Shown here piece after piece: positions 3,480 to 34,717 of a DNA stretch of 64,000 nucleotides. This stretch comes from Candidatus Poribacteria bacterium (GTDB taxonomy: Bacteria > Poribacteria > WGA-4E > PCPOR2b). The stretch is taken from contig OZ242351.1 of the NCBI GenBank assembly GCA_965208675.1, forward strand, positions 1,824,001 through 1,888,000. Direction: 5' to 3'. The position numbers were made by a program, and so were the translations under genes. The first letter of the stretch is position 1, and every line of letters starts with the position of its first letter. The notes below the pieces were generated by a model. That model had not been told where the DNA came from, searched no databases, and worked only from the letters and a program-made list of their open reading frames with translations.

Positions 3480-5891
3480 ATGACGCAAAGCCAGACAGAT
3501 GGTTCCCAAAGCGCGATCAATTCCGGGAATCGGTTGTTTCCGCCCCACCTGCTTCACGCCAGGTGGCACGAGTTTCAAGCTGAAGGGTATGCCGAACCCG
3601 TGACCGGCGTAATTTATCGGGGCAATCCCCGTCCGACGTGCGGCATGCCGCTGGGCGGTCTCGATACCGGTTGTATTGATATCGAACCCAACGGTATGCT
3701 GGGTTACAGTACAATTTTTAATCATTTGGTAAATCCCCGCCTGCTGCTAAACCTCCCCTTTTTGGGGTTGCATTGCGACGAAAAATCCTGGGTGCTGGTT
3801 TCGGATACACTGGGTAAGGACTATACACCGAAGGACAGCGAGTACGTAGCGACCTTCCCGCCAATCGACTACACCCCCCGATTCACCGATATTGAACTGG
3901 AGGGAGTGGAAACCGCTGATTCCATCGACTATTGGGGGCATTACCCAATTGTTGACATGGAATTCAACACGAGCGCCGCCGTGGAAGTTGGACTGCGTGC
4001 ATGGTCGCCTTTCATCCCCGGTGATACAGCGATTTCCATGGCGCCCGGCGCAGTATTTGAACTCACGGTGCGGAATCCTGGAAACGCGGGAAAAAATGGC
4101 ACGCTCGCCTTCAGTTTCCCCGGTTTTGAACTATCCGACGAAGAGAACTCCAAAGACTCAGTCCGCCGCGAAGCGCTGAAAGGCGAGTTGAACGGCTTGC
4201 ATGTTAACAGCGGTGCAAAGGACGATGCCTGGGAGATGGCGTATGTTTTGGCAGCAATTGATGATGCAGTTCGCTGCGGCGGACCGCTGAATACAGAAGG
4301 CGCCGCATGGGCAAAAATTGCCGACCAGCTTCCCAATGCCGGAGCGGGTGAAACCGGCGCGTCTCTGGCGTTCGATTTTAATCTCGATGCAGGCGAATCC
4401 AAAACCTACCGCTTCGTCCTTGCGTGGCACGCGCCGCACTGGAGAGCAGGAGGAGCGCCGTCGCATACGAATTCGAACCTGCTCACGCACATGTATGCCA
4501 AACACCACCCGGACGCAAAATCCACAGCAAATCTGTTAGCAAGCGACCCTGACTCGCTGCTAAAAAGAGTTATCTCTTGGCAAGAAGTCATCTACCAAGA
4601 CCCTGCGATTCCAGGCTGGCTTGCAGATTCGTTGATTAACAACCTTTACTTGATTCCCGAATGCAGCATCTGGGGTCAAGCCAAAGCGCCGATTGGCGAC
4701 TGGTGCGATTCCGACGACGGCGTTTTCGGATTAAACGAATGTCCACGAGGCTGTCCGCAAATTGAGTGCCTTCCCTGCAGTTTTTACGGGAATATACCGT
4801 TGGTCTACTTCTTCCCCGAAGCCGCCTTATCGACCTTACGCGGACAGAAGGCATACCAATACGAGGACGGACGGCCGCCCTGGATATTTGGCGGCGTCAC
4901 CGCCATTGAGGAAGGAAACCGGCCGCCGTATGAACTAAGCAAACCCGATGTCGGCTACCAGACCGTACTGAACGGAGCATGCTACATTATTATGGCGGAC
5001 CGGATTTGGCGCGCCTCCGGAGATGATGGTATGCTCGAGGAATTCTGGGATTCCCTTAAGCGTTGCAACGATTTCTCAATGAATTTGCGGCCAGCCTACG
5101 GACTGTCGCAGGTCATTTCAATGCCTACCCCCGGTACCGACTCACACGGCCTGGGGGACACGGAATGGTTTGAAGCGCCCGAACCCGGCTGGAAAGGGTA
5201 TGTGACTCATGCCGGCGCCGTTCGGCTAGCTCAAGTGCAAATCATGTACCGTATGGCGGAGGCAATGAACGATCATGAATATCTCAAGAAGTGCGGCGAT
5301 TGGATTGAAGCTGGGGAAGCGGCGCTAGAAGAGCACCTCTGGGCAGGCGAGTATTATCTGAACTTCAATGAGCCGGAAACCGGTCAGAAGTCCGATTTAA
5401 TCTTCGGCTATCAGCTTGACGGCCAGTGGATTACGGACTGGCACGGGGTACCCGGTGCGTTTCCCAAGGATCGGGTGGATCAAACGCTTGAGACGCTCCG
5501 GAAATATAACTGTGCGCTCAGCCAGTCAGGCGCGCTAAACTACGCGAGTGCAGATGGGCAGCTTGCCAATGTGGGCGGTTATGGGACTTACAGCTATTTC
5601 CCGCCGGAATTATACATGCTTGCCATGACCTACATGTACGGCGGGCAGCAAGATTTTGGTCTGGAACTGCTTCACAAATGTATGAACAACATCATCTGTC
5701 GATGGGGTTATACTTGGGATATGCCGAACACGGTACGCGGCGATGCCGACACCGGGCAAATGGCGTTTGGCGCCGATTACTATCAGAATATGATGCTCTG
5801 GGGTGCGCCGGCGGCGATTGCAGGGTCAGATCTCACGGGACCGTGTCAGTCCGGCGGGCTCGTGGACCGCGTCATCCAAGCTGGCAAGTAA
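3480..5891 (+). CDS. Glycoside hydrolase family 116 protein
   Basis: GMPLGGLDTG N-terminal motif, YWGHYP, RAWSPFIPGD, QLDGQW, C-terminal alpha/alpha barrel pattern; GAGGTG RBS. Confidence 0.8.
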   Translation: MTQSQTDGSQSAINSGNRLFPPHLLHARWHEFQAEGYAEPVTGVIYRGNPRPTCGMPLGGLDTGCIDIEPNGMLGYSTIFNHLVNPRLLLNLPFLGLHCDEKSWVLVSDTLGKDYTPKDSEYVATFPPIDYTPRFTDIELEGVETADSIDYWGHYPIVDMEFNTSAAVEVGLRAWSPFIPGDTAISMAPGAVFELTVRNPGNAGKNGTLAFSFPGFELSDEENSKDSVRREALKGELNGLHVNSGAKDDAWEMAYVLAAIDDAVRCGGPLNTEGAAWAKIADQLPNAGAGETGASLAFDFNLDAGESKTYRFVLAWHAPHWRAGGAPSHTNSNLLTHMYAKHHPDAKSTANLLASDPDSLLKRVISWQEVIYQDPAIPGWLADSLINNLYLIPECSIWGQAKAPIGDWCDSDDGVFGLNECPRGCPQIECLPCSFYGNIPLVYFFPEAALSTLRGQKAYQYEDGRPPWIFGGVTAIEEGNRPPYELSKPDVGYQTVLNGACYIIMADRIWRASGDDGMLEEFWDSLKRCNDFSMNLRPAYGLSQVISMPTPGTDSHGLGDTEWFEAPEPGWKGYVTHAGAVRLAQVQIMYRMAEAMNDHEYLKKCGDWIEAGEAALEEHLWAGEYYLNFNEPETGQKSDLIFGYQLDGQWITDWHGVPGAFPKDRVDQTLETLRKYNCALSQSGALNYASADGQLANVGGYGTYSYFPPELYMLAMTYMYGGQQDFGLELLHKCMNNIICRWGYTWDMPNTVRGDADTGQMAFGADYYQNMMLWGAPAAIAGSDLTGPCQSGGLVDRVIQAGK

Positions 5892-6661: not shown

Positions 6662-7570
6662 ATGAATCAGTCAAGCGTCGAAAAACTAAACACACACAAT
6701 CGAGACGCGGCGCTGTCCTTGATAAACGATGCTTACGCCACTGTGCGCGGATTTCAGCCGTTCACGATAGCTGATATAATCTCGCTCGCGCAGACGGGTT
6801 TATTCGCTCTTGGTTATATGAATGGTAAGCCGGTCAGTTTCGCATGCGGTTCTATGGCAGAGGAAGGTGAGGCAAAAATTCACTGGGTGGGCGTCCCCGA
6901 AGATTACCGGGGCGAATGCCACAGCCTTCCGCCGATGCAGGCATGCATCAATTTCCTAAGAGATAAAGGCGCAAAGCGGATTGGGGTGGAAAACTGGTTG
7001 GATGCCCCTTACCGCCAGATGTTGAGCCATTTTGATCACGAGGGGATTAAAGTTGAACATGTGCATTCTACCCTTCGGCTTGACATGGGGGACTATGCGC
7101 CGCAGCCGCCCCTGATTAAGGCGGGGTATAACCTGCGAACTTTTCGAGACGGCGATGAGCAAACTTGGGCGGAAATCCGAAATGCGGCGTTTGACGATTC
7201 ATCGAAAGCGGACGAGTTTTGGTCACAAACCTTCTTGGGTGTCAACAAGAAAACAGACTTTGACCCGCAGGGGTTTTTCTTCGCTGAAACGGGAGGAGAA
7301 CCTGTCGGCATGAGCGCAGGCATCGTGCTGCATGATCGAAAAAAGATTGGCGGAACGCTCCCCGGCGGGATTGGTTGGACAGGCGTCCATAATAACCACA
7401 GAGGTATCGGGCTCGGTAGGGCTTTGGTAGTTAGTTCCCTAAATTATCTGCACGGCCGCGGCGTCGCTGTAACGGAAGTTGGCACCGAGTTTTATCGAAC
7501 TGCAGCGGTGAATCTATACGAAAGTCTCGGTTTTCGTATTTACATTGCATGGTTTACTATTGTGTGTTAA
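6662..7570 (+). CDS. Tandem GNAT-family N-acetyltransferase (MshD-like architecture)
   Basis: Two GNAT units: WVGVPEDYRG and WTGVHNNHRGIGLGRAL...AVNLYESLGF. Confidence 0.85.
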   Translation: MNQSSVEKLNTHNRDAALSLINDAYATVRGFQPFTIADIISLAQTGLFALGYMNGKPVSFACGSMAEEGEAKIHWVGVPEDYRGECHSLPPMQACINFLRDKGAKRIGVENWLDAPYRQMLSHFDHEGIKVEHVHSTLRLDMGDYAPQPPLIKAGYNLRTFRDGDEQTWAEIRNAAFDDSSKADEFWSQTFLGVNKKTDFDPQGFFFAETGGEPVGMSAGIVLHDRKKIGGTLPGGIGWTGVHNNHRGIGLGRALVVSSLNYLHGRGVAVTEVGTEFYRTAAVNLYESLGFRIYIAWFTIVC

Positions 7571-7604
7571 CAGGTGTAGTCCCTGTACAAGTCGGTCTGT
7601 CGTC

Positions 7605-7639
7605 GTAGGTTGGATTACGCAAAACGCTTTAAGCCAACC
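7605..7639 (+). repeat. GTAG-type REP-like palindrome
   Basis: Starts GTAGGTTGGATTA and ends TAAGCCAACC; lies between convergent genes. Confidence 0.55.
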
Positions 7640-7659
7640 CGCCTAAGCTAAGAGAACAA

Positions 7660-10600
7660 CTACTTCACGATGACCATCCGCTTCACCGAGACATAGTCGC
7701 CGGCCCGAAGTTGATAGAAATACAGTCCGCTCGCAACCCGCTCTCCAGCCTCGGATCTCCCGTCCCAAAACGCCGCACGCTGCCTATCAATGTAATAACC
7801 CGCCCTCTGATGTCCCAATCTCAATTGGCGAACTATTGCGCCGTCGAAGTCATAAATTGAAATTTCTACCGATGCATCGGACGCCAATTGATAAGGGATC
7901 CACGTTTCCGGATTGAACGGATTCGGGTAGTTAGGCAAGAGTTTGGTTTCCACGGCGGCACTTTGGCGTTGTGTCAACCATGCGCGCAGAAGATTCCGCG
8001 CGGTTATTGCCGCTGGCGCTGGATTGGTCAGCGCTTCCAATTCGGCGAGTGCGTGCTGAATCGCAGCAATCCCGCCTTCCGGCAGCAGTTCTGGCTGTCG
8101 AATGTTTGGAAGGTTAGAAAGGACGCCGTGCATCTTGCTCGGCGCAGACGGCGCCGTTGTGTTTTCGCCGAGCCGTTCGCTGATTTGAATTAGGTCATCG
8201 ACATTAACGGTACCATCCCTGTTGACATCGGCAGCGGGGTTTTCGGGAGGCGTCTGCCCGTATTGCATACCGGCAATAACCAAGTCAGCGACATCAATGA
8301 CACCGTCCAAATTGACATCTTCAGGATTGGCCGAATCCTGAGGTACCGTTTGTGTCCGTTCTATGAAGTCGGAGTATGACATCGCGCATCGAAAACCGCC
8401 GAGATGTATGCGAAAATCCGGGGTGCTGACGTGGTTGTCACGATGGGCGCATCGGGTCACGTGTCTTTTATTCATCCAACATGCCCCGCGGAACGCGCGG
8501 TGTATCCCGATCGCTGGCCCCTGTGGGTTATTCCACTCCGTTAGCGAAGAATAATAGGCGTGATTATACCAATCTGAAACCGATTCCCAGACATTGCCGA
8601 CCATATCGAGCGCCCCGTACGGACTTGCGCCGTCGGGGAAACTTCCGACAGGCGTGGTTGTCCGGGGCCCAAGTTCCAAGGAATTCAAGCGTGTGGGGTC
8701 CCATTCATTCCCCCAAGGGAATATCCGGGCGTCCGTGCCCCTTGAGGCTTTTTCCCATTCGGCTTCTGTCGGCAATCGTTTCCCCGCCCATTTTGTGTAT
8801 GCGACTGCATCATTGTAGCTCACTTGGACTACCGGGTGATTCATCTTATCCTTAATCGTGCTTCCGTGCCCAAGCGGCGCCCTCCAGTTTGCGCCCTGGA
8901 TTTGAGGCCAAACGTTGCCGCCCTCCCATACAAATCCCCAGTTTTCCCTTTCAGCGTCGGTGATGTAACCCGTCGCATTCACAAATTTTTCAAACTGTGC
9001 GTTCGTCACCTCATATTTGTCGATGTAAAACGCGTCCAAAAATACCGTATGCTGCGGCTGTTCATGCTTGAAAAGCTCTCGGAGTGCGGGATTACGCCGC
9101 GTAATCTCATCAAGCTGCGAGTCACTGGTACCCATGATAAACTCGCCTTCGGGCACGAGCACCATGGTTGAATCGTCCTTCTGGTGGGTGATTTCAGTCA
9201 GCGGACCTTCGTGAATAACAGTGTCAAGTGCGGGAAGATGCATAGATGCTCCCGTTCCGCTGTAGAACGGAATCTCTGCATTAACCGGACCGTTGTTAAA
9301 GTTTGCGACTATCAAACGATCAGATTCCTCGGTCACCAATTTTACCGCTTTGACGAGACTATCGCTCGTAACTAACCACTGAAGTTTGCTCACCATGCTT
9401 CGTGTCACATCCCTGTCTCCGCTGATAAAGAGATAACTGCCTTCTCGAACAATATCGCCTTGTTCGTATTCCCCCGCCCCGAAATGTGGTTGCGACGTCG
9501 GGACATAGTCGATCCGTTCAGTAATCTGTCCGTTCCAAATGTTTCTCCTTCCCGGTCGAATCCTAAATGCGCCATCGTTGCGCACGTTGATGATGCCTAG
9601 TTTATCATCGATATTGATCCACGCGGAATCAATTGTGATATCCTCGCCGGGGCTGCTCCCAGCCGACAAAAATACTGCGTCACCTGCAGAATATATTTGC
9701 CTCTGGTTATCGTTGAAGATGCCGTTCGGCAAATGGTAAGTCAAACCGGCTTGTGCGGACACTGCAATTGCCTCTCGCGCAACTAGATATTCCATCATTA
9801 ACGCGGTTCCGTCTTCGGGCATCGCCGTAAAACTTATGTAGTGGTCTAAACCGTCTGTGTTGTCCCGCCTCCCCTCTCTTAACTGCCCCGTTGCGACGAA
9901 GCCACCTTCAATGAAGCGCTCATTATGGTGCATGAGCGTAGGGGGCGTGTCCGTATCTTTAATGAATACATTTCCGATGAAATTTCCCTTAGCCCATTCC
10001 ACCATGTTGTCGTCTCCAGGCACGAAGAGAGCCATCGGATAGTGTCCGGACAGATGCTGCCAACTGAATGACACAAACAGGTTTTCTGTGCGTGTGAAGA
10101 GATACTGGCAAAATTCGCTGTGAAAGCTGCCTTCCAGCTTTTTCTGAAAAGTATATACGTTTTCGGCGCCTATTGACGGCGAGAATTGGTGAAGTAGGTA
10201 AGCTAACCCCATATTTGCGTAGCTGTCCGTTTCGTAGATAAGGGGCCATCCTTGACGTTGATTTGCGAACCGCGCCCCGAAAATACTTCCGCCGCTGTTC
10301 TGTTGCTGCTCCCAAGCGAGCGCGCGAAAGCGGAGTTGTTCGATGAGGCGTGCGTCGGAGTCGCCGAGTTCATTTTCCAACATTACTAAGGCAGGAATGA
10401 TAAAGTAAGGCCCGTAGACGTGCCGCCCCCAATCCTTGCCCTGAAAATAGGCAAAACGTCCGGAAAAAAGATGTGTGCGCTTTAGCGTATCCCAAACATC
10501 GGTGAGATGATGAAAAAGAGTTTGAGGCACTGGCTGTCCGTTGCTAACAAACGCGTAGTATGCCCAAGCGAGCGAGTGCAACGGAACTGCAATATAGTCA

Positions 10601-24716: not shown

Positions 24717-26252
24717 TTAAGGTTTTGATAAAGCGTCTCGAAGAAGTTTGTTTATATTCCGTATGAACGTTTTAGTTTTTCGTACGCCACTATCGCGCGC
24801 CGTGATTTCAGCGAGGGCGATTGCAATTGCCATTCGTTGGAGAGGTTCGATTTGGGATGTGTCGGTACCACCATACCGTAGCATAAATGGATGAGCAAGC
24901 GACATTCGAATTTTGACTCGTCGAAGGTTCCCATCCCACGGGTCGTCACTAACATCCAGCCAATCACCTACTGCCGGATCATTTGACAACTCTATTGAGA
25001 TTTCCCATAATCTGCCGTCGATTTCCACTGGTACGGTTTTATTGGCAACTGATACTTTTGCCTTGGGTAAATTGTGAGGTAGTGGTGTATTCTCCGTTCC
25101 TTCCTCAAGTTGTTTCTCAACAACTGGGGGCACGTCATTCTTTACTGTTTTAGACGTACGATGCGTTGAATTCTCAGCGCCCTTTTTCAAGTCTTGAGTT
25201 TTTGACCTTACACGATATCCTTCTGCTTGACTGAGTAATGCAATAGGTTTTTTTTCAAGTTCTTCCTTCAGGAGTTCTAAGAATGGACCTTCGTTTTCAT
25301 CCCACTGAAATCCATCCTTGGTGTGGCTGACATTGAATCCGTCAAGATGAAGTTCTCCAAAAAGCCGTTGGTAAGTGTAACTATTCGGCGACCCAAAAGG
25401 CCGATAACCCTCATCTGCACTCCCCTGAATCAATCGTTTTCTACGAAACAACGCAAATCCAGCTCTTGACGTACTTGCTTTCTCGCGTAGAGCCGCAAAC
25501 CCGCGTGCGCGTAATCCTGTTCCGAAGTCGAAGTCAATCTCTTTTCTCCACAATCGCGGTGCTTCCGATTGGATTTTGTGGAACGGTGCACGCAATATTT
25601 CCGGATTTGAGTACGACAAACCTTCTCCGCGGAAGTGAAGTTCTAGCAATTCCTCTCTGATGAACACCCGGTAGATACTTGCCAAATGATCCTGGATTTT
25701 GGAGATGGTTCTCCCTTGAGGGGGCCTGTGAAGGTTCGACAGTATAACTTCGGTGAAATGTGTGCTAGGTTCAATCGGCCTCGTTTCAATGATTAATTCC
25801 TCTAAGTTATCTTCTACGATTTTAGCAATGTCAAAGTGAACTGTTCTTTCCACCGATTCACCAAGTGCTGTCGTCCGTACGGCCCAGTTTGGTGAAAACC
25901 AACACGCAGCACTTTTCATTCCCATCCCAAATTCGGATAATCCGCTTGTGTCAGACGGTATGTCCGCGGGACGGAAAGCGCGGGGGTAGTCTGATTCGCG
26001 AATGCCCGCTGCGTTATCACGCACAGTTAAATACCCATCCTCGGCGGGATCTAGTTCAATTTCGACTTTTAGCCGCGTTTTGTCTCCATCCCACCGTTTG
26101 ATTTCCTCCCCGTTATCAAGAAAACTTTGAAGGGAATTATCGACAAATTCTGCAATTGCGAACCAAGGCCTATAGTTGAGGCGACTGAGGACAGATAAGA
26201 TGCCAACGCCGGGACGGATATGAATCTTTTCCCGTTTATTCATGATGCTCAA
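24717..26252 (-). CDS. MORC/MutL-type GHKL ATPase
   Basis: AIAEFVDNS, VRDNAAGI, GLSEFGMGMKSA; TTGA overlap with the methyltransferase stop. Confidence 0.85.
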   Translation of the reverse strand: MSIMNKREKIHIRPGVGILSVLSRLNYRPWFAIAEFVDNSLQSFLDNGEEIKRWDGDKTRLKVEIELDPAEDGYLTVRDNAAGIRESDYPRAFRPADIPSDTSGLSEFGMGMKSAACWFSPNWAVRTTALGESVERTVHFDIAKIVEDNLEELIIETRPIEPSTHFTEVILSNLHRPPQGRTISKIQDHLASIYRVFIREELLELHFRGEGLSYSNPEILRAPFHKIQSEAPRLWRKEIDFDFGTGLRARGFAALREKASTSRAGFALFRRKRLIQGSADEGYRPFGSPNSYTYQRLFGELHLDGFNVSHTKDGFQWDENEGPFLELLKEELEKKPIALLSQAEGYRVRSKTQDLKKGAENSTHRTSKTVKNDVPPVVEKQLEEGTENTPLPHNLPKAKVSVANKTVPVEIDGRLWEISIELSNDPAVGDWLDVSDDPWDGNLRRVKIRMSLAHPFMLRYGGTDTSQIEPLQRMAIAIALAEITARDSGVRKTKTFIRNINKLLRDALSKP

Positions 26253-27661
26253 TCTTGGTATTCACAAGAAGATCTAAATTCGCTCGCTACAACACTCGGA
26301 AGCACAATCGGGGAGAAAGTACCCGATGTTTCTCTCGCCGGCAACTCGACCAAACTTGTCGAGGTCTGGGTTTGCTGAAGGCAATCTTCAGAATGGTAAG
26401 TAAGCGCTTTGACAATTTCTTTAACCAGTTCTACATTCACCGCATTTCCTAAAGCTGTGAATGCGCGGGTTTGGGCTTTAGGTAACACTAAATTTTTGTC
26501 AATGCTCTGCAAACGAGCACATTCTCGTGGTGTCATGTACCGTTTTTGCCAACCGACAATTGGAACTTGCGTGTTTGACATCGCCACGAGTGAAGGCGCA
26601 GTCGTCCGTTTTTTGACCCGGACGCCTGAAGGCCTAAGTTGAATTAAAAGTTTCCATATGTCCCGTTCTTCATCTTGACAGTTCCACTCAAATTTTTGGT
26701 AACTCTGAGGAAAAGTTTTAATCTTTTGCATCCAGCCATCAATCCAACTCTTATGGTCCTGATAAAGTTTGCGGTTCTTTTGTATGAATCGGATTTTCCA
26801 CGTCGGGAATTGCTTCTGTTTCCTTCGCGCATAAGAAGGTAGATTGAGCCACACATTTTCATCGGATAATCCTGTTAGCGGCGTGGCGTGGTTCCCTAGA
26901 CATCCAAGTTCACGCAATTTGTCTGCTCCTAACACATGTGGTGTTGTTTTATCAAAAGGATAGTTTGCCCCAAATTCCATTGACCAGATTGGGAAAGATG
27001 GAAGTGGAGTATTTTCCGGAAACCGCTCAATGAATTCTTGCCAAACATGCAAGCATTCCTGAACAAGATTGGGCAATTTCTGATAGCTGGGTGGATCTGT
27101 GTCAAGTATCTTTCTAATATCCGGCTTTTCAATTTCACGCGGCGGTATAGGGAGACAAGCATCAACAGAGCGACTCCCAACAATGAACATCCGTCGGCGA
27201 ATCTGCGGAATTCCAAATTGATGAGGAGATAAACATGCCTCGTTAATTTGATAACTCGCTCCAAGAAGATCTTTTTTGACTTTTTGCCATGTACGTCCGC
27301 CATCATGCCGTTTGAGATGCGGGACATTTTCCAGAATAAAGTAGTTTGGCTTTTTCGCGCGGAGGATCTTTATAACATAGTCAAACAAGTCGCCCTTATC
27401 TGGACATTCAAATCCTCTCCGATGGCCTGCTTGAGAAAAAGGTTGACACGGGAATCCAGCGCATAGAATATCATGGCTGGGAATGTTTGCACTGTCAATT
27501 TTTTTGATATCGCCGTGTGGTTTGAACCCAAAATTTCGCGCGTAAAGTGCGTTGAGTTGCGGCTCAATTTCACACGCAAAAACGCACTGATGGCCGAGTT
27601 CCCTAAGTGCCAAATGGAAACCCCCAAGACCTGCGAAGAGATCTATGAATTTTAAACCCAT
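26249..27661 (-). CDS. dcm: DNA (cytosine-5)-methyltransferase
   Basis: FIDLFAGLGG, GFPCQPFS, LENV, PQIRRRMFIVG, TPRECARLQ, GNAV. Confidence 0.93.
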   Translation of the reverse strand: MGLKFIDLFAGLGGFHLALRELGHQCVFACEIEPQLNALYARNFGFKPHGDIKKIDSANIPSHDILCAGFPCQPFSQAGHRRGFECPDKGDLFDYVIKILRAKKPNYFILENVPHLKRHDGGRTWQKVKKDLLGASYQINEACLSPHQFGIPQIRRRMFIVGSRSVDACLPIPPREIEKPDIRKILDTDPPSYQKLPNLVQECLHVWQEFIERFPENTPLPSFPIWSMEFGANYPFDKTTPHVLGADKLRELGCLGNHATPLTGLSDENVWLNLPSYARRKQKQFPTWKIRFIQKNRKLYQDHKSWIDGWMQKIKTFPQSYQKFEWNCQDEERDIWKLLIQLRPSGVRVKKRTTAPSLVAMSNTQVPIVGWQKRYMTPRECARLQSIDKNLVLPKAQTRAFTALGNAVNVELVKEIVKALTYHSEDCLQQTQTSTSLVELPARETSGTFSPIVLPSVVASEFRSSCEYQD

Positions 27662-27682
27662 CGTATTTTCAACGTTTGTCCT

Positions 27683-28621
27683 TTAGTTGCGTGGTAATTT
27701 TTCGATTCTAGGCATTGCCCATTTGATGATTCGATCTTTCAATGACGATGATTCCCATTGTTCACGATATCTCGCTGCCGCTAGTAGTCTATGCCGGTCT
27801 AGCAACAATCCTTCTACTAGAACGCAATGGTCCCTAAAATTATCGTCGCTGAGGGCGAACGGAATCGCCAAACCCTTTTGAGGCGGAACCACGAAATCAA
27901 TCAACTTTCGCCACAGACCGATGCTCGGTTGCTGTATCTTCTTGACCCAGTCTCGCCCACTTGCGCACTGCATGAGATATACCGGAAAACCTCCTCGATG
28001 GTCCGAAAACGGACGGTAAAGCAAGAGGTCAAGACCGCCGTCTTTACGTCTTGTATTTGCCCGAGTGCGATTGTCATGTCTGGCGTCTTCGCCAAGCCAG
28101 TCGGCGGTTTGATTCACAATCTCTTGAAATCCCGTTGGATTCACGGGCGACCAACCAGTTCGTCTTACTTGCCAATCTGAAAACTGCTCTCTGAGGGATT
28201 CTTGTGTTACTAACTCGAACAGTTCTCCCTGTTCGTTGCGATCTCTACCAGTTACGCAATCCCACCAGTTTCTATAGCATTGGGATAACGACAGCAATAC
28301 GCAAAAACTGTGAGCGGGCATTGTCTGCCATGAATTAATCCGCTTTACTTCTGGATAGGTAACAGTGAACGGCATTTTAGGTCGAACATATTCAACCCTA
28401 CGCGTGAGTTCGGTCCAAGCGTGAACAAGAATTTCTTCAGCGAAGTCACGTCCATCATAGATATTTTCATTGATTAACACATCAACAACATCCATCACGG
28501 AGAAGTCGTCCTCACTTTCGTCGAACAGGATGCTAGCTTCTATCCAATCGCACAATATTTCAAGTTTGATATTGTGACGATTGACTGACCTGGCCATGCC
28601 ACTATCTGGAAGAGCAAGCAT
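27683..28621 (-). CDS. Restriction endonuclease-like protein (Mrr-type PD-(D/E)XK variant)
   Basis: GELFE...KDGGLDLL...LMQCASG pattern; TAATG coupling to the upstream gene. Confidence 0.55.
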   Translation of the reverse strand: MLALPDSGMARSVNRHNIKLEILCDWIEASILFDESEDDFSVMDVVDVLINENIYDGRDFAEEILVHAWTELTRRVEYVRPKMPFTVTYPEVKRINSWQTMPAHSFCVLLSLSQCYRNWWDCVTGRDRNEQGELFELVTQESLREQFSDWQVRRTGWSPVNPTGFQEIVNQTADWLGEDARHDNRTRANTRRKDGGLDLLLYRPFSDHRGGFPVYLMQCASGRDWVKKIQQPSIGLWRKLIDFVVPPQKGLAIPFALSDDNFRDHCVLVEGLLLDRHRLLAAARYREQWESSSLKDRIIKWAMPRIEKLPRN

Positions 28622-29736
28622 TAGTTTTCCTTCTCACCCTGTTGGATTTCTTTGTGAACGCCAGGGAAGACATCCAGCAACTGGTAAACATCAATTCCCA
28701 ATCTATTTATCGCTTGCTGAATATCTTCAGAATCCTTATGATGATGGACGCGGCTCAGTGCTAATTGCACATTGTTTGCCGCCTCGTTGATGAGTTGCGC
28801 AATTTGGGATTCATCACCACCTGCTAACTGAAACGCGTAGTCAAAGTTCGGTTTCCTGTTTTCTTGGAGATACTGAACAGCCTTAGGGCTCTCAAGAATC
28901 CTCCCGAAATCATCAACCCGTCGCGAATCGGTGAAGATTGGAGGCTTCTCACTTGTGCCAAATAACCACTGCGCAAAGTAGCTGAGCGCTTCCAAGTGAG
29001 TTCTGGGTACCGGTGCCATGGTCACTTTTGGATCTGCAAAAATGTCTATATTAAGATACTGCTGCACGCCATGCGTCCGAAGCGAAAGATACATAACGCT
29101 AAATCTTCCTTCAGTCTTCAGATTCGTGAAGTCCTCTAAGGTGTCCTCCATTTGCAAGATTAACCGGTGAGAAATATAGTGTTGTCGAACAGTTGGGGTC
29201 TTGCTTCCAATTTTTCGCATCACATCTTCATAAGTCATGTTTCCTTCATCAATCAAATTTGCGATGAATTGTGCTTTCTGTGCCGGCTGCCATTGTTTGA
29301 TACCTGTAACATGACGAAACCCCAGAAAAGACTCAATGTCCTGTCGAGAATCAACCTGTAGATACGGAATCTCATTGAAAAGGCTTACGGATACTGTTCG
29401 ATTTTGGACAAGCAACATCCATTTTTTTGATGTCTCTTCTCGATTTACAGCCCGACGAAGCAATATTAGGGCCGCAAGGCGCCGATTTCCTTCGACAACA
29501 ACTAGTCGGTTTTCTCCATATAATTCTTCTTCGGTAACCAATAACGCTTCATGTGTCCAAAAACCGCTTTCCAAATATGACACAGCGAGTTCATCAAGCA
29601 CCCATGTGCGCATTATATCAAGGATTTCGTCTTGCGAGAGAGATGTGCTATCTTGATGTCGGCCAAGTCGCGGGTTCTTTGTATCAAGATAAAGGTCATC
29701 CAACGTGGCGTATTGAAGTCTTTCGCAAATTCCCAT
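28621..29736 (-). CDS. ParB/Srx-like N-terminal domain protein
   Basis: LYLDTKNPRL...VVVEGNRRLAAL...GFRHVTGIKQW followed by an HTH-like segment. Confidence 0.7.
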   Translation of the reverse strand: MGICERLQYATLDDLYLDTKNPRLGRHQDSTSLSQDEILDIMRTWVLDELAVSYLESGFWTHEALLVTEEELYGENRLVVVEGNRRLAALILLRRAVNREETSKKWMLLVQNRTVSVSLFNEIPYLQVDSRQDIESFLGFRHVTGIKQWQPAQKAQFIANLIDEGNMTYEDVMRKIGSKTPTVRQHYISHRLILQMEDTLEDFTNLKTEGRFSVMYLSLRTHGVQQYLNIDIFADPKVTMAPVPRTHLEALSYFAQWLFGTSEKPPIFTDSRRVDDFGRILESPKAVQYLQENRKPNFDYAFQLAGGDESQIAQLINEAANNVQLALSRVHHHKDSEDIQQAINRLGIDVYQLLDVFPGVHKEIQQGEKEN

Positions 29737-29832
29737 GTTTCACCTTCGCTTCTTACAGGTTTCGCATTCTTCGGTTTCACTGAAAAAAGAACACCTCGCG
29801 GCACCTTAAACTGAAAGCATTTGACGTGGAAC

Positions 29833-29861
29833 ATTTTACCATGATAGGCCTTTCTTGTCAA
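29833..29861 (-). promoter_or_regulatory. sigma70-type promoter of the putative defence operon
   Basis: TTGACA-17 nt-TAAAAT with extended TG, overlapping a palindrome at 29855-29875. Confidence 0.65.
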
Positions 29862-30038
29862 CGCGCGTTGGACAATCAGAAAGAGATTTTCGTCACTAAA
29901 TTATTGATTAGGGTGTGTGCCTGGCACGTTTTCAATATTGACTCCTATCCAGCATTTTATCTAGATAAAAGGTACCCGCTCCGCAATTTTTCATTCATTG
30001 ACAAGAACTTGGACTCTTCAAATGAGAATAACCCTCTC

Positions 30039-30260
30039 TCACCTACGCCCCCAAACGAACCTAACCACCACGCCGATGAGAATCAAGCAGACGACCAGTC
30101 CAATCAAGCCGAGTATGAAACCCAAAATGTTGAACATCCAGTGTCCGGCAGAAGAATGGCTAACTTCCCACAACAGCCATAACGAGCCGTATCCCACGAC
30201 AAGGACGAATCCCGCGGCAATCAAACTGGCTAACAGTTTGAGAAGGCAACCGAGATTCAT
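30039..30260 (-). CDS. Small two-TM membrane protein
   Basis: Two hydrophobic helices, GGAGG RBS. Confidence 0.55.
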   Translation of the reverse strand: MNLGCLLKLLASLIAAGFVLVVGYGSLWLLWEVSHSSAGHWMFNILGFILGLIGLVVCLILIGVVVRFVWGRR

Positions 30261-30317
30261 ACCAACCCTCCATTTAGCTAAACCAATCCCTAGGTAACGA
30301 GTTTGAACGTCATTTTT

Positions 30318-31214
30318 TCACGAAGTTCTGATGAAAAACGGCTGTGTCCACGCCATGCGTCCGCCAGCGCCGTAGCATTCGGCGCGGATATACCCCAACC
30401 GCGCGGCATCGTCCGGGCTTTCCGGTAGTGTGAATGTAGCTTCAGGGGCATCGACTGTGGAACGGATGACGCCGGCGTTACTGATGAAACGGATTCGCTG
30501 CGCATCTTCAGTAGCTACATGCACCGTTTTACCTTCCGCACCGACGCGGGTGACTGTGACACCAGTAGAGCCGTAGAAACTGCCGGCTTTGAGCGCTGAT
30601 GTTATGCCTTCAACTGTACAGTCTTCTGTTTGTACCATGTTCCAAGCGAGTTCAACGTCGACCGGGAGATGTGAATCGTCGTGCGCAAACCCCCAGATTT
30701 CCAGTCCCGTTGTCAGCAAGCGATCCCACCGATCTGTCGCTAACGCGACGCCGGGCAGGCGTTCAATGACGCCGTTGTAGATTTCGATGCCGTGGTAGCG
30801 ATTGAGGGATTCCATCTGTTCCTGTGGAAAATGATTAAAGTGCGCTTCAAAGTTCGGGTGGTTCAGCACACTCACGCCGCCCTGTTTGTTGATTTCGTCG
30901 ATAACCCACTGTCGATTCGGGTGCGGCTCAATCCAGGCTTCCGCGTTGACCTGCAAAATATGGGGACCTCGCGCCGTCACTTCAACCGCCGGGATGAGCG
31001 TCATGGAGGTCTCTTTCTGATAGCCATCGAGTTTAACCAACACGTCGTGATCCGAGATAGCCAAGAAATCGTAACCCCGGCTATCGTAGTCGGCAATTAC
31101 CGCTTCGGGCGGAAGAGAGCCGTCGCTGCGGGTTGTATGGGTATGCAGGTTGCCGCGGAACCAGTTTGAAGCCCCTGTGTAGCTGCTCTTTAGCTGGATA
31201 CCGTTATTTGACAT
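30318..31214 (-). CDS. PHP-domain (CehA/McbA-like) metallohydrolase
   Basis: GNLHTHTTRSDG, AISDHD, LNHP, HDDSH, AWTQP; AAGGAG RBS before ATG 31214. Confidence 0.85.
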   Translation of the reverse strand: MSNNGIQLKSSYTGASNWFRGNLHTHTTRSDGSLPPEAVIADYDSRGYDFLAISDHDVLVKLDGYQKETSMTLIPAVEVTARGPHILQVNAEAWIEPHPNRQWVIDEINKQGGVSVLNHPNFEAHFNHFPQEQMESLNRYHGIEIYNGVIERLPGVALATDRWDRLLTTGLEIWGFAHDDSHLPVDVELAWNMVQTEDCTVEGITSALKAGSFYGSTGVTVTRVGAEGKTVHVATEDAQRIRFISNAGVIRSTVDAPEATFTLPESPDDAARLGYIRAECYGAGGRMAWTQPFFIRTS

Positions 31215-31310
31215 TTTTGACTCCTTCTTCGCAAGATATACAGACATGTCCGCGATTAGTTCAAACAAACCTTCTAAACTTACTGGCCACTGGCTGCTGC
31301 CTCTGCGGTT

Positions 31311-32537
31311 TCAATCTAAGGAAGCGTAATATTCAACGATGACTTGCCACGCCTTCTCGCTCATGAATCCGTCGGGCGGGGATTCGCCGCTACGCGCGTA
31401 TTCACGCATCTGCGAACCTGAAACGAAAAGAAAATCCGGGGCGCGGTCGGGTTCAAAAAAGCCCATACTGCCCGCGGCTTTGTCATAAGCCGCGACGCGG
31501 AACGGGACGATTTTCAGGCGTTCTAGTCCAACCGCGGTTTGTAACGCCTTCACGCCGTGCCAAGGATCATATAACGGGGCAGACTTGCCGCCGGAGTCGA
31601 GCCGCTCCGGATGCGGCATGCCTGCCGGGTCCCGCCCGACGATGTAGTAATCCGCGCCAGCGTTCATCCGCGCCTTCGCATGCCACTGCACCTCGGTTGG
31701 ACCGGCGTAAAGCATCGGGCTAGGAAAAATCGAGACGACTGTCGTGTCCGCATCCAGTACACCGTCTTCGAGAACTGCGTCGTGTTGGCGCATCCGCACC
31801 GGCAACGGCACATCATCGGCTTTTGTCCAACCGCCCAGTGGATGGAGCAGGAGCATCGGGTTTTGATATCCCTGTTTTTTTAGCTCGTCCCGGGTCTCGT
31901 TCATCAACAGCGCATGACCGTTGTGAATGGGGTTGCGCAGTTGAAACGCATAGACGACATCAGCGCCGCGCCGTTTGAATTCTGCGCGAAGTTCCGCAGG
32001 ACTCAAGCGGTATTGATCCAGACCATCGTTGTAGGTGATTCGATCCGACACTTCGAGCTCCCCGCCGACAAGGTAATCCCCCATCGCATTGATTCTCTCG
32101 ATACTCGGGTGAGCTGGGTGGGTTAAACCGAATGTCCGTGCTGCCCGCTCCTCTTTTGCGTGCCGGTAAAATTCTGGATCGCGTAAGATTGCAACGGCAT
32201 GTCCTTCGGTGTTAACGAGCGCCACTGCTTTCTCATTTTTCAAACGGTTATAATTGTCGGTAGAAACGTCGAACGTAATCGGAATGGACATATTCACACG
32301 CGTACCGTCGTGCTGGCGTAGGCAGTTAAAATGAAGCGTCTGCAAAAATTCATCTTCCCGCATAAACCCGCGAAGCGGGCTCGCCCATCCTTCGCTGAGG
32401 ACATGTATCCACTGGACATCATAATCGGTAACCGGAAGTTTTGGAAGGTCTGTTGCTTCGGCACGTTTTTTTACCCGTTGATTGTCGGGTACGATTAAGT
32501 CTACTAGAGCACCGCCGTCTGGTGCAATTAAGGACAT
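31311..32537 (-). CDS. sat: Sulfate adenylyltransferase (ATP sulfurylase), plant/animal-type sequence
   Basis: AFQLRNPIHNGH, LLHPLGGWTKADDVP, YAGPTEVQWHA, IVGRDPAG; GAGGAG RBS. Confidence 0.93.
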   Translation of the reverse strand: MSLIAPDGGALVDLIVPDNQRVKKRAEATDLPKLPVTDYDVQWIHVLSEGWASPLRGFMREDEFLQTLHFNCLRQHDGTRVNMSIPITFDVSTDNYNRLKNEKAVALVNTEGHAVAILRDPEFYRHAKEERAARTFGLTHPAHPSIERINAMGDYLVGGELEVSDRITYNDGLDQYRLSPAELRAEFKRRGADVVYAFQLRNPIHNGHALLMNETRDELKKQGYQNPMLLLHPLGGWTKADDVPLPVRMRQHDAVLEDGVLDADTTVVSIFPSPMLYAGPTEVQWHAKARMNAGADYYIVGRDPAGMPHPERLDSGGKSAPLYDPWHGVKALQTAVGLERLKIVPFRVAAYDKAAGSMGFFEPDRAPDFLFVSGSQMREYARSGESPPDGFMSEKAWQVIVEYYASLD

Positions 32538-32593
32538 ATTTTCTCCTCATAATGAGTAAATTTTGGCATGGTAATCAGGTACAATTTGGGACG

Positions 32594-32623
32594 ATTATAT
32601 CACAATTGCGAGATTGAAGTCGA
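32594..32623 (-). promoter_or_regulatory. Putative promoter for sat
   Basis: TCGACT-18 nt-TATAAT with extended TG. Confidence 0.45.
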
Positions 32624-32638
32624 GGCTATTAAATTGTG

Positions 32639-32667
32639 TTGACATAAATCGCAGATCCGCATAAAAT
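32639..32667 (+). promoter_or_regulatory. sigma70-type promoter for the isomerase/ADH/PhyH genes
   Basis: TTGACA-17 nt-TAAAAT. Confidence 0.6.
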
Positions 32668-32732
32668 TAGAGATCGTAAATCGTTCCGGCATCTATAGGA
32701 GACACCGGTGTAATCGGAGGAGAAAAATTCAC

Positions 32733-33608
32733 ATGAAGGGACTAAGTTGTAATTCAGGGCTTTTGTGCAAATACAGCACAGAAGAGGCGATTAACATACT
32801 CGCAGAACACGGCTATCAAGGTATCGACATAAGTCTTGAAATTGCGCCGCCGTTTTTGCCTATGCCGCCGCCCCACATGAGTCCGGATGACAATGCGAGC
32901 ACAAGAAGGCGGGTGCGCCAAGCTGCGGAACAAGCCGGAATCACAATCGTTGCGTTGAACGCCCACAATAACCTGATTCATTCTGTGCCCGAGACTAGAC
33001 AGGCGAATTTAGAGTTCGTTAAGGGCGCGCTGCAACTCGCGTCTGACCTTGAAGTCCAATGTGTGGTTGCCGGCTCCGGAATGAAAGAATTCTACGGATG
33101 GGAAAGCCGATACTGGGAATGGATGGTAGTTGCCTTGCGGGAATTAGTTTCGGAAGCAGACCGTTTGGGAATTTCGCTGGCTGTTGAAGCGGGCGGACTG
33201 CCCGGTATCCTCGTGCACAACTTGATTCGTATGCAACGCCTGCTTGAATACGAGGGCTTAGAGTCGTTGGGCGTGCTGTTCGATCCGAGCCACTACTATA
33301 TCAGAGGAGACGACGTACCCGAAGCCTTCAAGGCGCTGAGCCGCCGCGTAGCACACGTACACGCCAAGGATGCCAAAGGATATGTCGAAGACTACGCATT
33401 CCCGCCGCTCGGGGTGGGCGACATTGATTTCGAGGCATTGGTCTCGGCGATAGTGGAGTGTAACTACACAGGTTACATTTCGATTGAGTATGAGGCGTTT
33501 GCATGGGGCTATGAAATGGAGCCTACACAAGTACTTTCCGAGGGCAAGACTCTATTAGACGGCATTATTTCCGCGGCTGCGAGACAACCGAATCAGCAAT
33601 CACGCTAG
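32733..33608 (+). CDS. Sugar phosphate isomerase/epimerase (xylose isomerase-like TIM barrel)
   Basis: LAVE, FDPSH, HVHAKD, GVGDIDF, YISIEYE. Confidence 0.87.
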   Translation: MKGLSCNSGLLCKYSTEEAINILAEHGYQGIDISLEIAPPFLPMPPPHMSPDDNASTRRRVRQAAEQAGITIVALNAHNNLIHSVPETRQANLEFVKGALQLASDLEVQCVVAGSGMKEFYGWESRYWEWMVVALRELVSEADRLGISLAVEAGGLPGILVHNLIRMQRLLEYEGLESLGVLFDPSHYYIRGDDVPEAFKALSRRVAHVHAKDAKGYVEDYAFPPLGVGDIDFEALVSAIVECNYTGYISIEYEAFAWGYEMEPTQVLSEGKTLLDGIISAAARQPNQQSR

Positions 33609-33673
33609 AATTTCAGAGAAACTAACCCGCTAACCCGTCATGAATTCAAGATGAAGACTAGGGGGAATTTATC

Positions 33674-34717
33674 ATGCTAGCCGCCGTTCTGAGAGAATTA
33701 AGCAAGCCCTTGCGCATCGAGGAGGTGGAAACGCCGTCGCCCGATCCGGACGAGGTTTTGGTGCAAGTTATGGCATGCGGCACGGATGCTACCGATCTAA
33801 AGATGATTGATGGATTCGGTTACGCACCCGATTTGCCGTTCATCACGGGCCATGAAATTGCCGGCGTCGTCTCTGAATTTGGCAACCAAGTAACCGATTT
33901 CAAACCCGGTGACCGGGTCGTCGCCCACAATTTCTTTACATGCGGCAAGTGCTTGCTCTGCCGCACAAACCGTGAGCAGTTGTGTATCGACATGTCCGGT
34001 GTCATGGGTGCTAGGATAAAACACGGCGGCCACGCAGAATACGTCCTTGTCCCCGCTCGGCAGCTTGTTTCCGTCCCGGACGGTGTGCCTTGGCCTGATG
34101 CTGCCGTGTGCTGCGACGCCGGCATCACGGCATTTCACGCCGTGGATAGAGCGGAGGTAAGCCTAGGCGAAACTGTGGTCGTTATCGGAGTCGGCGGCGT
34201 GGGGTCTGTCGTTACCCAACTGGCAAGGGCGGCTGGCGCATATGTCATCGCCGTTGACCGATTGGCGGTAAAGGTGGCACGCGGCCTCGAAATGGGAGCT
34301 GATGTCGCGCTCAATGCCAGCGAGACGGATGTCGAAACAGAAGTCCGCGAACTCACGGATGGGCTCGGTGCGGACTGCGTGATTGATGTCGTCGGCAACA
34401 GAGAGACACTGACGTATGGGGTCAACACGTTGCGCCACGGCGGGCGATTGCTGGTTATAGGCTATACGCCGGAACTATACGAACTCAGTGGCAGACAACT
34501 TGCCCAGAACGAGTTGATGCTTATCGGTTCACGGTGCGGTCGGCTTCAGGATTTGGCGAGTGCTGTTCGGTTGGTTGCGGAAGGAAAAATAAAATCCATC
34601 GTCACCGATTTGTATCCATTGGAAAAAATCAATGATGCGTTGGATGACTTACGCGCGAGCAAAGTGTTGGGGCGGGCTGTCTTACTCACACCCGCTGGTA
34701 GGAAGGCAATGGAATAG
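33674..34717 (+). CDS. Zinc-binding alcohol dehydrogenase family protein
   Basis: GHEIAG, structural CGKCLLC..C, GVGGVG. Confidence 0.9.
   Translation: MLAAVLRELSKPLRIEEVETPSPDPDEVLVQVMACGTDATDLKMIDGFGYAPDLPFITGHEIAGVVSEFGNQVTDFKPGDRVVAHNFFTCGKCLLCRTNREQLCIDMSGVMGARIKHGGHAEYVLVPARQLVSVPDGVPWPDAAVCCDAGITAFHAVDRAEVSLGETVVVIGVGGVGSVVTQLARAAGAYVIAVDRLAVKVARGLEMGADVALNASETDVETEVRELTDGLGADCVIDVVGNRETLTYGVNTLRHGGRLLVIGYTPELYELSGRQLAQNELMLIGSRCGRLQDLASAVRLVAEGKIKSIVTDLYPLEKINDALDDLRASKVLGRAVLLTPAGRKAME

Follow-up and report, generated by a model that had tools for sequence, protein, structure and literature searches.

A plant/animal-type ATP sulfurylase encoded in a Candidatus Poribacteria chromosome

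How does a bacterial chromosome come to encode the ATP sulfurylase (ATPS) isoform of plants and animals? We asked this of sat, a gene for an unfused sulfate adenylyltransferase in a stretch of 64,000 nucleotides (the window), which corresponds to positions 1,824,001–1,888,000 of the chromosome of a sponge-associated Candidatus Poribacteria bacterium. In the passages of Patron, Durnford and Kopriva 2008 (PMC2275785) that deal with it, the plant/metazoan isoform lies in a clade of eukaryotes only. How the isoform arose in evolution is an unsettled matter, and a passage in Prioretti et al. 2014 (PMC4220642) states that the ATPS trajectory “remains to be elucidated.” Our full-text literature searches, which did not cover subscription-only journals, returned no paper that describes an ATPS of the plant/PAPSS type in any bacterium, Poribacteria included. 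Here we describe a genuine, well-supported instance of a core metabolic enzyme of eukaryotic type that resides in bacterial chromosomes and belongs to a bacterial clade that provides a concrete test set for the origin of the isoform. The findings bear on the evolution of sulfate assimilation and on sponge-symbiont genomics.

The open reading frame (ORF) is intact, with 408 codons and an ATG start. Its product contains both domains of the enzyme at full length, PUA_2 (PF14306, residues 4–165, E 1.4e-46) and ATP-sulfurylase (PF01747, residues 174–403, E 3.5e-65), and the Pfam search showed neither an adenosine 5′-phosphosulfate (APS) kinase domain nor an N-terminal extension. The protein passed the TIGR00339 equivalog-domain model (373.3 bits, cut-off 322.95) and failed NF003166, the model of the ordinary bacterial Sat subfamily (PRK04149; 218 bits, cut-off 387). 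In a phmmer search of the PDB, the best match was the soybean ATPS 4maf, aligned end to end (E 1.2e-166, query residues 3–407); human PAPSS2 and PAPSS1 (1x6v, 2qjf, and 7fh3) matched in their sulfurylase domains with E values of 6e-152 to 1.5e-148, and bacterial, archaeal, and fungal Sat structures reached 3.5e-43 at best. Identity to the solved structures was ∼60 to 65%.

An earlier note on this DNA, made from the sequence alone, had read the gene as a plant/animal-type ATPS from a list of motifs, every one of which is present in the translation: LIAPDGG, WIHVLSEGWASPLRGFMREDEFLQTLHFN, NDGLDQYRL, QLRNPIHNGH, GGWTK, YAGPTEVQWHAKAR, GRDPAGMPHP, PFRVAAYDK, and PPDGFM. It had further stated that ordinary Sats differ at two of these motifs, and the alignments bear this out. 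GRDHAG occurred in all 15 outgroup rows of a 69-row alignment, including six ordinary Poribacteria Sats, and GRDPAG occurred in the 54 plant/animal-type rows, except for one GRDAAG (Planctomycetota). In a condensed alignment showing 14 of the 69 rows, QLRNP.HNGH was found in 12 of 13 plant/animal-type rows, with QTRNPTHAGH in the fused form P0126, and the one ordinary Sat shown (O_Pori_G013) had QTRNPMHRAH, following the pattern QTRNP.H..H. The note was also right that the gene has no introns, no transit peptide, and no APS-kinase domain, and that a GAGGAG ribosome-binding site precedes the start codon. The residues Q199-L-R-N-P203, H205-N-G-H208, and G301-R-D303 are invariant in an alignment of 23 bacterial sequences, as is GRDPAG as a whole, and they align with the soybean and human enzymes. 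The HNGH histidines are, we presume, H425 and H428 of human PAPSS1. Mutation of H425/H428 in human PAPSS1 abolishes ATPS activity, according to a passage in PMC11697783. We conclude that the protein is the plant/metazoan (PAPSS-type) ATPS isoform in a noneukaryotic host and a new taxonomic member of a known enzyme family. Judging by its domains, its TIGR00339 match, and its catalytic motifs, it belongs to the ATP sulfurylase family and is expected to convert ATP and sulfate to APS and pyrophosphate (PPi).

A eukaryote-type gene in a bacterial assembly could reflect a chimera or eukaryotic contamination, in which case sat would not truly lie in a bacterial chromosome, and the earlier note had allowed for a chimeric contig. 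We found no point in support of this explanation. The host genome is a single closed contig of 4,892,038 bp (96.4% complete, 1.14% contaminated), and the gene has a bacterial ribosome-binding site and no introns. Same-genus relatives carry sat orthologs, 85 to 96% identical, on complete Candidatus Poribacteria chromosomes that are metagenome-assembled genomes (MAGs); three of these chromosomes (L011–L013) keep the neighbors of sat, namely a PHP-like gene downstream and genes for a xylose-isomerase-like TIM barrel, a zinc-dependent alcohol dehydrogenase, and a PhyH-family protein upstream, at 82 to 98% identity to those of the window. Logan contigs from four of four runs, which come from four studies and are labeled sponge metagenome, covered 29 of the 30 bins of 29800–34200 at a likeness of at least 90%. 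They bridged the junction between the PHP-like gene and sat (X5 record 10, 30954–31438; X6 record 18, 30865–31508; X8 record 29, 31125–31317) as well as the junction between sat and the gene upstream of it (X8 record 31, 31592–33266; X6 record 21, 31933–33108; X5 records 12–13). Because contigs of four independent runs bridge both junctions, the locus is not chimeric. The composition of sat is typical of its host (GC content 0.547, 91st percentile; GC at third codon positions 0.581, 80th percentile; codon usage at the 77th percentile of 1393 long genome ORFs), and the gene is therefore compositionally ameliorated and not a recent arrival. We regard the explanation by chimera or contamination as refuted.

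The plant-type sat is the only sulfate-activating enzyme that we found in the host chromosome. A genome search returned no other Sat-like gene and no CysN above cut-off (G000; best 95 bits versus 336), and the CysN–CysD pair of the heterodimeric enzyme was not found in this genome. The sulfate assimilation pathway appears from its gene content to be complete, with the partners elsewhere on the chromosome. An APS kinase (CysC, 206 aa) is encoded at ∼1.188 Mb, unlinked to sat. Two proteins of the host genome match the PAPS_reduct family, one of them a CysH-type reductase (252 aa) that has the CC...CXXC and ECGLH motifs (Fe–S cysteines) and adjoins CysK, the other weaker (41.5 bits). An 819-aa ORF with two NIR_SIR domains is a candidate sulfite reductase. 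Since CysC, CysH, NIR_SIR, and CysK are present, APS could supply reduction and cysteine synthesis on the one hand and, as 3′-phosphoadenosine 5′-phosphosulfate (PAPS), sulfation on the other. The plant-type sat would then be a working assimilatory ATP sulfurylase that feeds CysC, CysH, sulfite reductase, and CysK.

To what extent is the isoform found in other prokaryotes? We scanned one genome per species for 185,579 prokaryotic species with a pattern that rests on two conserved peptides, such that divergent members could escape. The scan gave 130 matches, 14 of which encode a relative, in 13 distinct loci: ten in Poribacteria MAGs and one each in a Latescibacterota MAG (69%), an “uncultured bacterium,” and a Planctomycetota MAG (58%). 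In a search of 5.8 billion proteins, the first 22 matches besides one plant gene model were metagenome proteins of 401 to 419 aa with 66 to 97% identity, some of them on contigs of up to 5.9 Mb; the next were from the glaucophytes Cyanoptyche (67%), Gloeochaete, and Cyanophora (both 64%) and from land plants (62 to 65%). The isoform is thus rare in prokaryotes. The distribution in related genomes, a check proposed in the earlier note, showed the plant type to be the minority state within the phylum as well. Among 176 Poribacteria genomes, 12 have the plant type (E 1e-188 or better), comprising all four of genus g1, the single member of genus g3, six of seven in family f4, and the single member of family f9. 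The only Sat-like match in 157 others is the ordinary type, mostly at ∼28 to 35% identity; seven have no Sat match, at a completeness of 61 to 96%, and none of the 176 has two.

The two isoforms occupy the same chromosomal slots. In slot A, sat is followed by a gene for a PHP-superfamily metallohydrolase of the CehA/McbA type, and the orthologs of this hydrolase that follow sat are 62 to 95% identical overall, across both Sat isoforms. The plant type is found here in genus g1 (the window and L011–L013) and in family f4 (G027, G030, L015, and L016; hydrolase 62–63% identical), and the ordinary type in G009 of genus g7 (Sat 26%, hydrolase 72% identical). In slot B, sat is followed by a Zn-dependent dehydrogenase (407 aa) and a LarA-family isomerase (520 aa), with the plant type in G005 (genus g3); G032 and G026, both of family f3, and G040, of family f2, carry the ordinary type. 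The slot B flanks are conserved (dehydrogenase 62–75%, LarA homolog 73–74% identical), and identity between the Sats that they frame is 28 to 29%. Same-slot occupancy, together with a distribution in which the isoforms never occur in one genome, shows that on two or more occasions one isoform displaced the other without a change of position. Replacement could have proceeded by homologous recombination in the flanks, which are conserved, or through an intermediate with both in tandem and subsequent reciprocal loss. At each slot, either isoform may be the ancestral one. Poribacteria thereby offer a natural experiment, in which closely related genomes carry either isoform in the same slot and never both, and in which one can ask which functional difference (APS/PAPS inhibition, kinetics, or stability) drives replacement; the question spans sponge-associated and pelagic lineages.

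Several Poribacteria families have the conserved dehydrogenase/LarA pair as the immediate downstream neighbors of Sat. We located it at L014 7319–10098, L029 3060–5902, and L032 2855–5682, with a Zn-dependent dehydrogenase of 407 to 411 aa and a LarA-family gene of 514 to 535 aa that resembles NF052592, a nickel-pincer nucleotide (NPN)-dependent hydroxyacid isomerase. We know of no functional tie between this pair and sulfate activation.

For the phylogeny, we assembled 75 rows and used 69, with P0132, P0142, P0182, P0187, P0248, and P0251 dropped as partial or multi-stretch. From a search of representatives at 50% identity, in which plants shared a single representative with the bacterial clade and many fragments were returned, we took 27 of the 150 proteins listed into the first set. 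To confine the rows to the sulfurylase region, we trimmed them with a hidden Markov model of the bacterial clade (404 columns), and a maximum-likelihood (ML) tree was computed under LG+C20+F+G4 with posterior mean site frequencies (PMSF); paired support values are from ultrafast bootstrap and SH-aLRT. The 54 plant/animal-type rows formed a clade (100/100), separated by ∼3.3 substitutions per site from the ordinary Sats, including those of other Poribacteria. Thus, the gene does not nest among ordinary bacterial Sats, the outcome that the earlier note had set against its own reading, and the assignment of a plant/animal-type enzyme to a closed Poribacteria chromosome stands. Within the clade we recovered streptophytes (100/99), glaucophytes (99/99), protist forms fused to APS kinase or pyrophosphatase (99/94), and animals (91/78). 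The 19 rows from Poribacteria and Latescibacterota formed a clade (76/91), with the long-branched Planctomycetota row outside it in the ML tree. Placing all 20 bacterial rows in one clade, a grouping that we named after inspecting the tree, gave a log likelihood (lnL) 1.19 better than that of the free tree (p 0.52 in the approximately unbiased (AU) test). The bacterial subtree tracks taxonomic rank, with g1 joined to g3 (100/96), then f4 (100/99), the Dive96 type (86/95), and the Latescibacterota group, which suggests long residence rather than recent shuffling.

An insert provides a second line of evidence on the bacterial copies. Fourteen of the 20 bacterial rows, from three phyla, have a 6-residue insert (ERL[DN]..G) after GRDPAGMxHP. 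It is carried by the g1, g3, and Dive96 types of Poribacteria, by the Latescibacterota group, and by the Planctomycetota MAG; the six rows without it belong to a nested f4 subclade. The insert is missing from all 22 named eukaryote rows that lie outside the group of fused forms (including streptophytes, glaucophytes, the red alga, and animals), and the Amorphochlora row and unnamed fused forms have different inserts of other lengths at that site. The insert supports a single origin for the bacterial copies of the isoform.

The earlier note had offered two origins, a transfer from a eukaryote to a bacterium or a bacterial sister lineage, and both survive our analysis: the bacterial clade represents either a core metabolic enzyme's rare and ancient passage from a eukaryote into bacteria or the bacterial sister group that had been missing. 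With moderate confidence, we favor the ancient transfer; its direction is inferred and is not decided by the tree. We favor it because the isoform is widespread among eukaryotes (it occurs in streptophytes, glaucophytes, and red algae, in animals as the C-terminal domain of PAPS synthase, and in several protist groups) and was found at only 13 loci among the prokaryotic species scanned; because the bacterial sequences make up one clade with a derived insert; because the ML position, identity, and unfused architecture place the bacteria with Archaeplastida, nearest the glaucophytes; and because the plant type is the minority state in Poribacteria. By mean identity, the bacteria are as close to glaucophytes (66%, up to 73%) as glaucophytes are to streptophytes (66%), with 63% between bacteria and streptophytes and 57% between bacteria and animals. 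On this reading, one ancient transfer would have brought an unfused Archaeplastida-like (glaucophyte-like) gene into bacteria, and long residence in Poribacteria would have followed, during which the gene would have taken over the chromosomal positions of the ordinary bacterial Sat. The bacterial clade is small, comprising some Poribacteria, one Latescibacterota MAG, and one Planctomycetota MAG.

Several points weigh against a eukaryotic source. The backbone inside the plant/animal-type clade is unresolved, and the sister relationship of the 19 bacterial rows to glaucophytes is weak (63/59). The sampling of eukaryotes was limited, with no sponge, cnidarian, choanoflagellate, haptophyte, or cryptophyte named in the tree. 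The root is unreliable because the very long outgroup branch (3.3 substitutions per site) attaches to the long-branched fused protist forms. When all eukaryotic and unnamed ingroup rows were constrained to one clade with the bacteria outside, the lnL was 4.64 worse and the AU test did not reject the arrangement (p 0.424), so that neither nesting nor direction is established by the tree. Finally, divergence within the bacterial clade (56–63% minimum identity) is as deep as that between eukaryotic supergroups, which fits an old bacterial lineage too.

The last two points lend weight to the opposite course of events, in which the bacterial clade is an old prokaryotic lineage, sister or donor to the eukaryotic isoform, the gene passed from bacteria to an early eukaryote, and the present carriers are relics. 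A sister group could equally form one clade with an insert of its own, and the carriers belong to three phyla from marine, deep-water, and groundwater sources, judging by record titles. In the relevant passages of Patron et al. 2008 (PMC2275785), no prokaryotic relative could be named for the isoform. We nonetheless consider this course possible rather than probable. Only 13 loci were found among 185,579 species genomes; the ML position is beside glaucophytes and not basal; and by identity the Archaeplastida cluster encloses the bacteria, which do not lie outside the eukaryotes as a whole. Moreover, 12 of 176 Poribacteria have the plant type versus 157 with the ordinary Sat in the same slots, so Poribacteria probably acquired the plant-type gene. 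In its boldest form, which we find doubtful, the proposal is that early eukaryotes received the plant/animal ATP sulfurylase from a prokaryotic lineage whose surviving members are the Poribacteria, Latescibacterota, and Planctomycetota enzymes. If true, it would give an isoform hitherto seen as eukaryote-only its missing bacterial root, and the unfused form of plants, glaucophytes, and red algae would be ancestral and not a secondary split of the PAPS synthase fusion.

Capture by a symbiont from the PAPS synthase of its sponge host, with the APS-kinase domain lost, is a third possible source. Near-identical DNA in all four runs labeled sponge metagenome would fit such a capture, as would GMPHP, which we found only in three of four genus-g1-type tree rows and in animals, with GMKHP in most other bacterial members. 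A clade of the 19 bacteria with the nine animals, however, costs 24.3 lnL (AU p 0.082), which disfavors it without formal rejection, and mean identity is lower to animals (57%) than to glaucophytes (66%). No animal protein was among the best 120 database matches (all at least 567 bits), though PAPSS lengths lie within the searched range of 224 to 714 aa, and the tree contains no sponge sequence. Members of the clade also occur in MAGs titled as deep-water and groundwater. We therefore judge capture from a sponge host to be very improbable and retain ancient transfer from a eukaryote nearer the glaucophytes as the favored origin. The mix of plant-like and animal-like features that the earlier note had described is present in the motifs, but it arises because the nearest eukaryotes are glaucophytes, which have GGWTK, GFMG.KAW, and GMKHP: the first two are found in both glaucophytes of the condensed alignment, and GMKHP in all three glaucophytes.

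Comparison with known enzymes places the poribacterial protein as follows. It shares with soybean 4maf and other streptophyte ATPS the unfused architecture of PUA-like and catalytic domains, QLRNP.HNGH, GRDPAG, and PFRVAAYDK, at 59 to 70% identity to the streptophyte enzymes. Plant ATPS, in contrast, have 50 to 150 extra N-terminal residues, while the poribacterial protein has no plastid transit peptide; the 6-residue insert after GRDPAGMPHP is not in streptophyte ATPS; GFMSEKAW stands in place of the streptophyte GFMCPGGW; and the gene lies in a bacterial chromosome behind a Shine–Dalgarno site. The nearest eukaryotic enzymes are those of Cyanoptyche gloeocystis, Gloeochaete wittrockiana, and Cyanophora paradoxa (64–67% identity to the poribacterial protein, with other bacterial-clade members reaching as much as 73%), which are likewise unfused and share GGWTK, GMKHP-type, and GFMG.KAW states with the bacteria, but have N-terminal extensions of ∼80 to 90 residues and no bacterial insert. 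Human PAPS synthases 1 and 2 are the same isoform, matching over the whole domain (E 1e-148 to 1e-152) with the same catalytic motifs. The bifunctional PAPS synthases of animals and stramenopiles have an N-terminally fused APS kinase, a fusion absent from the poribacterial sat, whose APS kinase is a separate 206-aa gene ∼670 kb away. The ordinary Sat of other Poribacteria (∼396 aa) belongs to the same superfamily, with the same reaction, length, and chromosomal slots, and is the sole Sat-like match in its genome, yet it is only 24 to 29% identical to the plant-type protein and lies across the 100/100 branch. The bacterial enzymes thus provide prokaryote-encoded, intron-free PAPSS-type members that are directly comparable with the plant and human enzymes. 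For passage of an ATPS from eukaryotes to marine bacteria there is a precedent in Patron et al. 2008 (PMC2275785), where, in the passages concerned, a eukaryote-to-cyanobacterium transfer is proposed; that case differs in the isoform, which is the other (chlorophyte/plastid-type) ATPS, and in the recipients, which are marine cyanobacteria.

Some database proteins of the isoform deserve separate mention. P0007, a 595-aa hypothetical protein of Cocos nucifera that scored 781 bits, above all plants, was considered as a bacterial contaminant or link and rejected; its two tandem ATP-sulfurylase catalytic domains are 79 to 85% identical to streptophyte ATPS and have no bacterial insert, as in a plant gene model. 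The doubling reflects either a tandem duplication or an artifact of the gene model, and the protein is unrelated to the bacterial clade. P0048 (409 aa, from a 2.1-kb Joint Genome Institute (JGI) metagenome contig) is unfused, has neither an N-terminal extension nor the bacterial insert, and is sister to Cyanidioschyzon merolae (100/100); it is either algal or a second independent prokaryotic acquisition. Among the fused forms, P0125, P0126, P0128, P0131, P0134, P0139, and P0141 carry PF01583, and P0126, P0128, P0134, and P0141 also carry PF00719. P0138 (929 aa, 19-kb contig), which groups with the fused protist forms in the tree, joins a Major Facilitator Superfamily transporter (residues 31–375) to a plant/animal-type ATP sulfurylase (494–883), an architecture that could couple uptake of sulfate to its activation.

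The features of the locus, and the genes that flank the plant-type sat in a Dive96-type MAG, are collected in Table 1. The hydrolase gene follows sat at a distance of 42 bp on the same strand, with no terminator-like site found on the minus strand between the two, and the pair may be cotranscribed, judging by this arrangement. The promoter described in the earlier note is present as a TG-extended match; such sites, however, were no more frequent in the sat region than expected by chance (three found versus 2.8 in shuffled sequence).

Table 1. Coordinates of features at the sat locus and of sat-flanking genes in MAG L023
Feature	Coordinates	Strand	Evidence or remark
sat (unfused 408-aa ATP sulfurylase / sulfate adenylyltransferase, plant/PAPSS-type isoform)	31311..32537	-	ORF, Pfam, TIGR00339, PDB search, tree
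Shine–Dalgarno-like GAGGAG	32543..32548	-	direct sequence reading; 5 nt 5′ of sat ATG
Sigma-70-like promoter match (TCGACT, 18 nt, TG-TATAAT)	32594..32623	-	10 of 12 matches; weak evidence
PHP-superfamily metallohydrolase (CehA/McbA family)	30318..31268	-	NF038032 110.5 bits, cut-off 80
L023 genes flanking plant-type sat	4561-5586 and 7250-8689		FGE-sulfatase upstream, phosphodiesterase downstream

Poribacteria genomes carry one to three matches to the PHP-like protein, and its gene also lies directly after Sat at L041 3325–4233, L042 5902–6771, and L015 7294–8181. The Pfam PHP model fell below its cut-off on this protein (23.3 versus 26.4), and the PDB gave only short N-terminal matches (2anu, E 7e-7; 7ug9, E 6e-5). 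We considered a role as a 3′-phosphoadenosine 5′-phosphate (pAp) phosphatase and set it aside as speculation, the only match to NF041577 being N-terminal and scoring 36 bits (cut-off 400). The Dive96-type MAG instead has, immediately after the plant-type sat, a gene for a type I phosphodiesterase/nucleotide pyrophosphatase (PF01663), and the upstream FGE-sulfatase gene is sulfatase-modifying factor-like. As a guess, Sat-linked hydrolases might pull or tidy sulfate activation by removing PPi, pAp, or APS. Such a role would be akin to that of the pyrophosphatase fusions of protist ATPS, which are described in a passage of PMC2275785 and are also seen in our fused rows.

Farther from sat, window positions 26249–30037 form a low-GC stretch (0.43–0.46 versus 0.49 for the genome). 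It encodes a C5 cytosine DNA methylase (PF00145, 26249–27661) and two ORFs of 312 and 371 aa without a Pfam match, and none of the three had a tblastn match in the same-genus loci L011–L013. To the left of ∼30037, contigs from all four sponge-metagenome runs diverge from the window, with zero depth in the bin 29800–29946. The stretch looks like a strain-specific island, possibly one of restriction-modification or defense.

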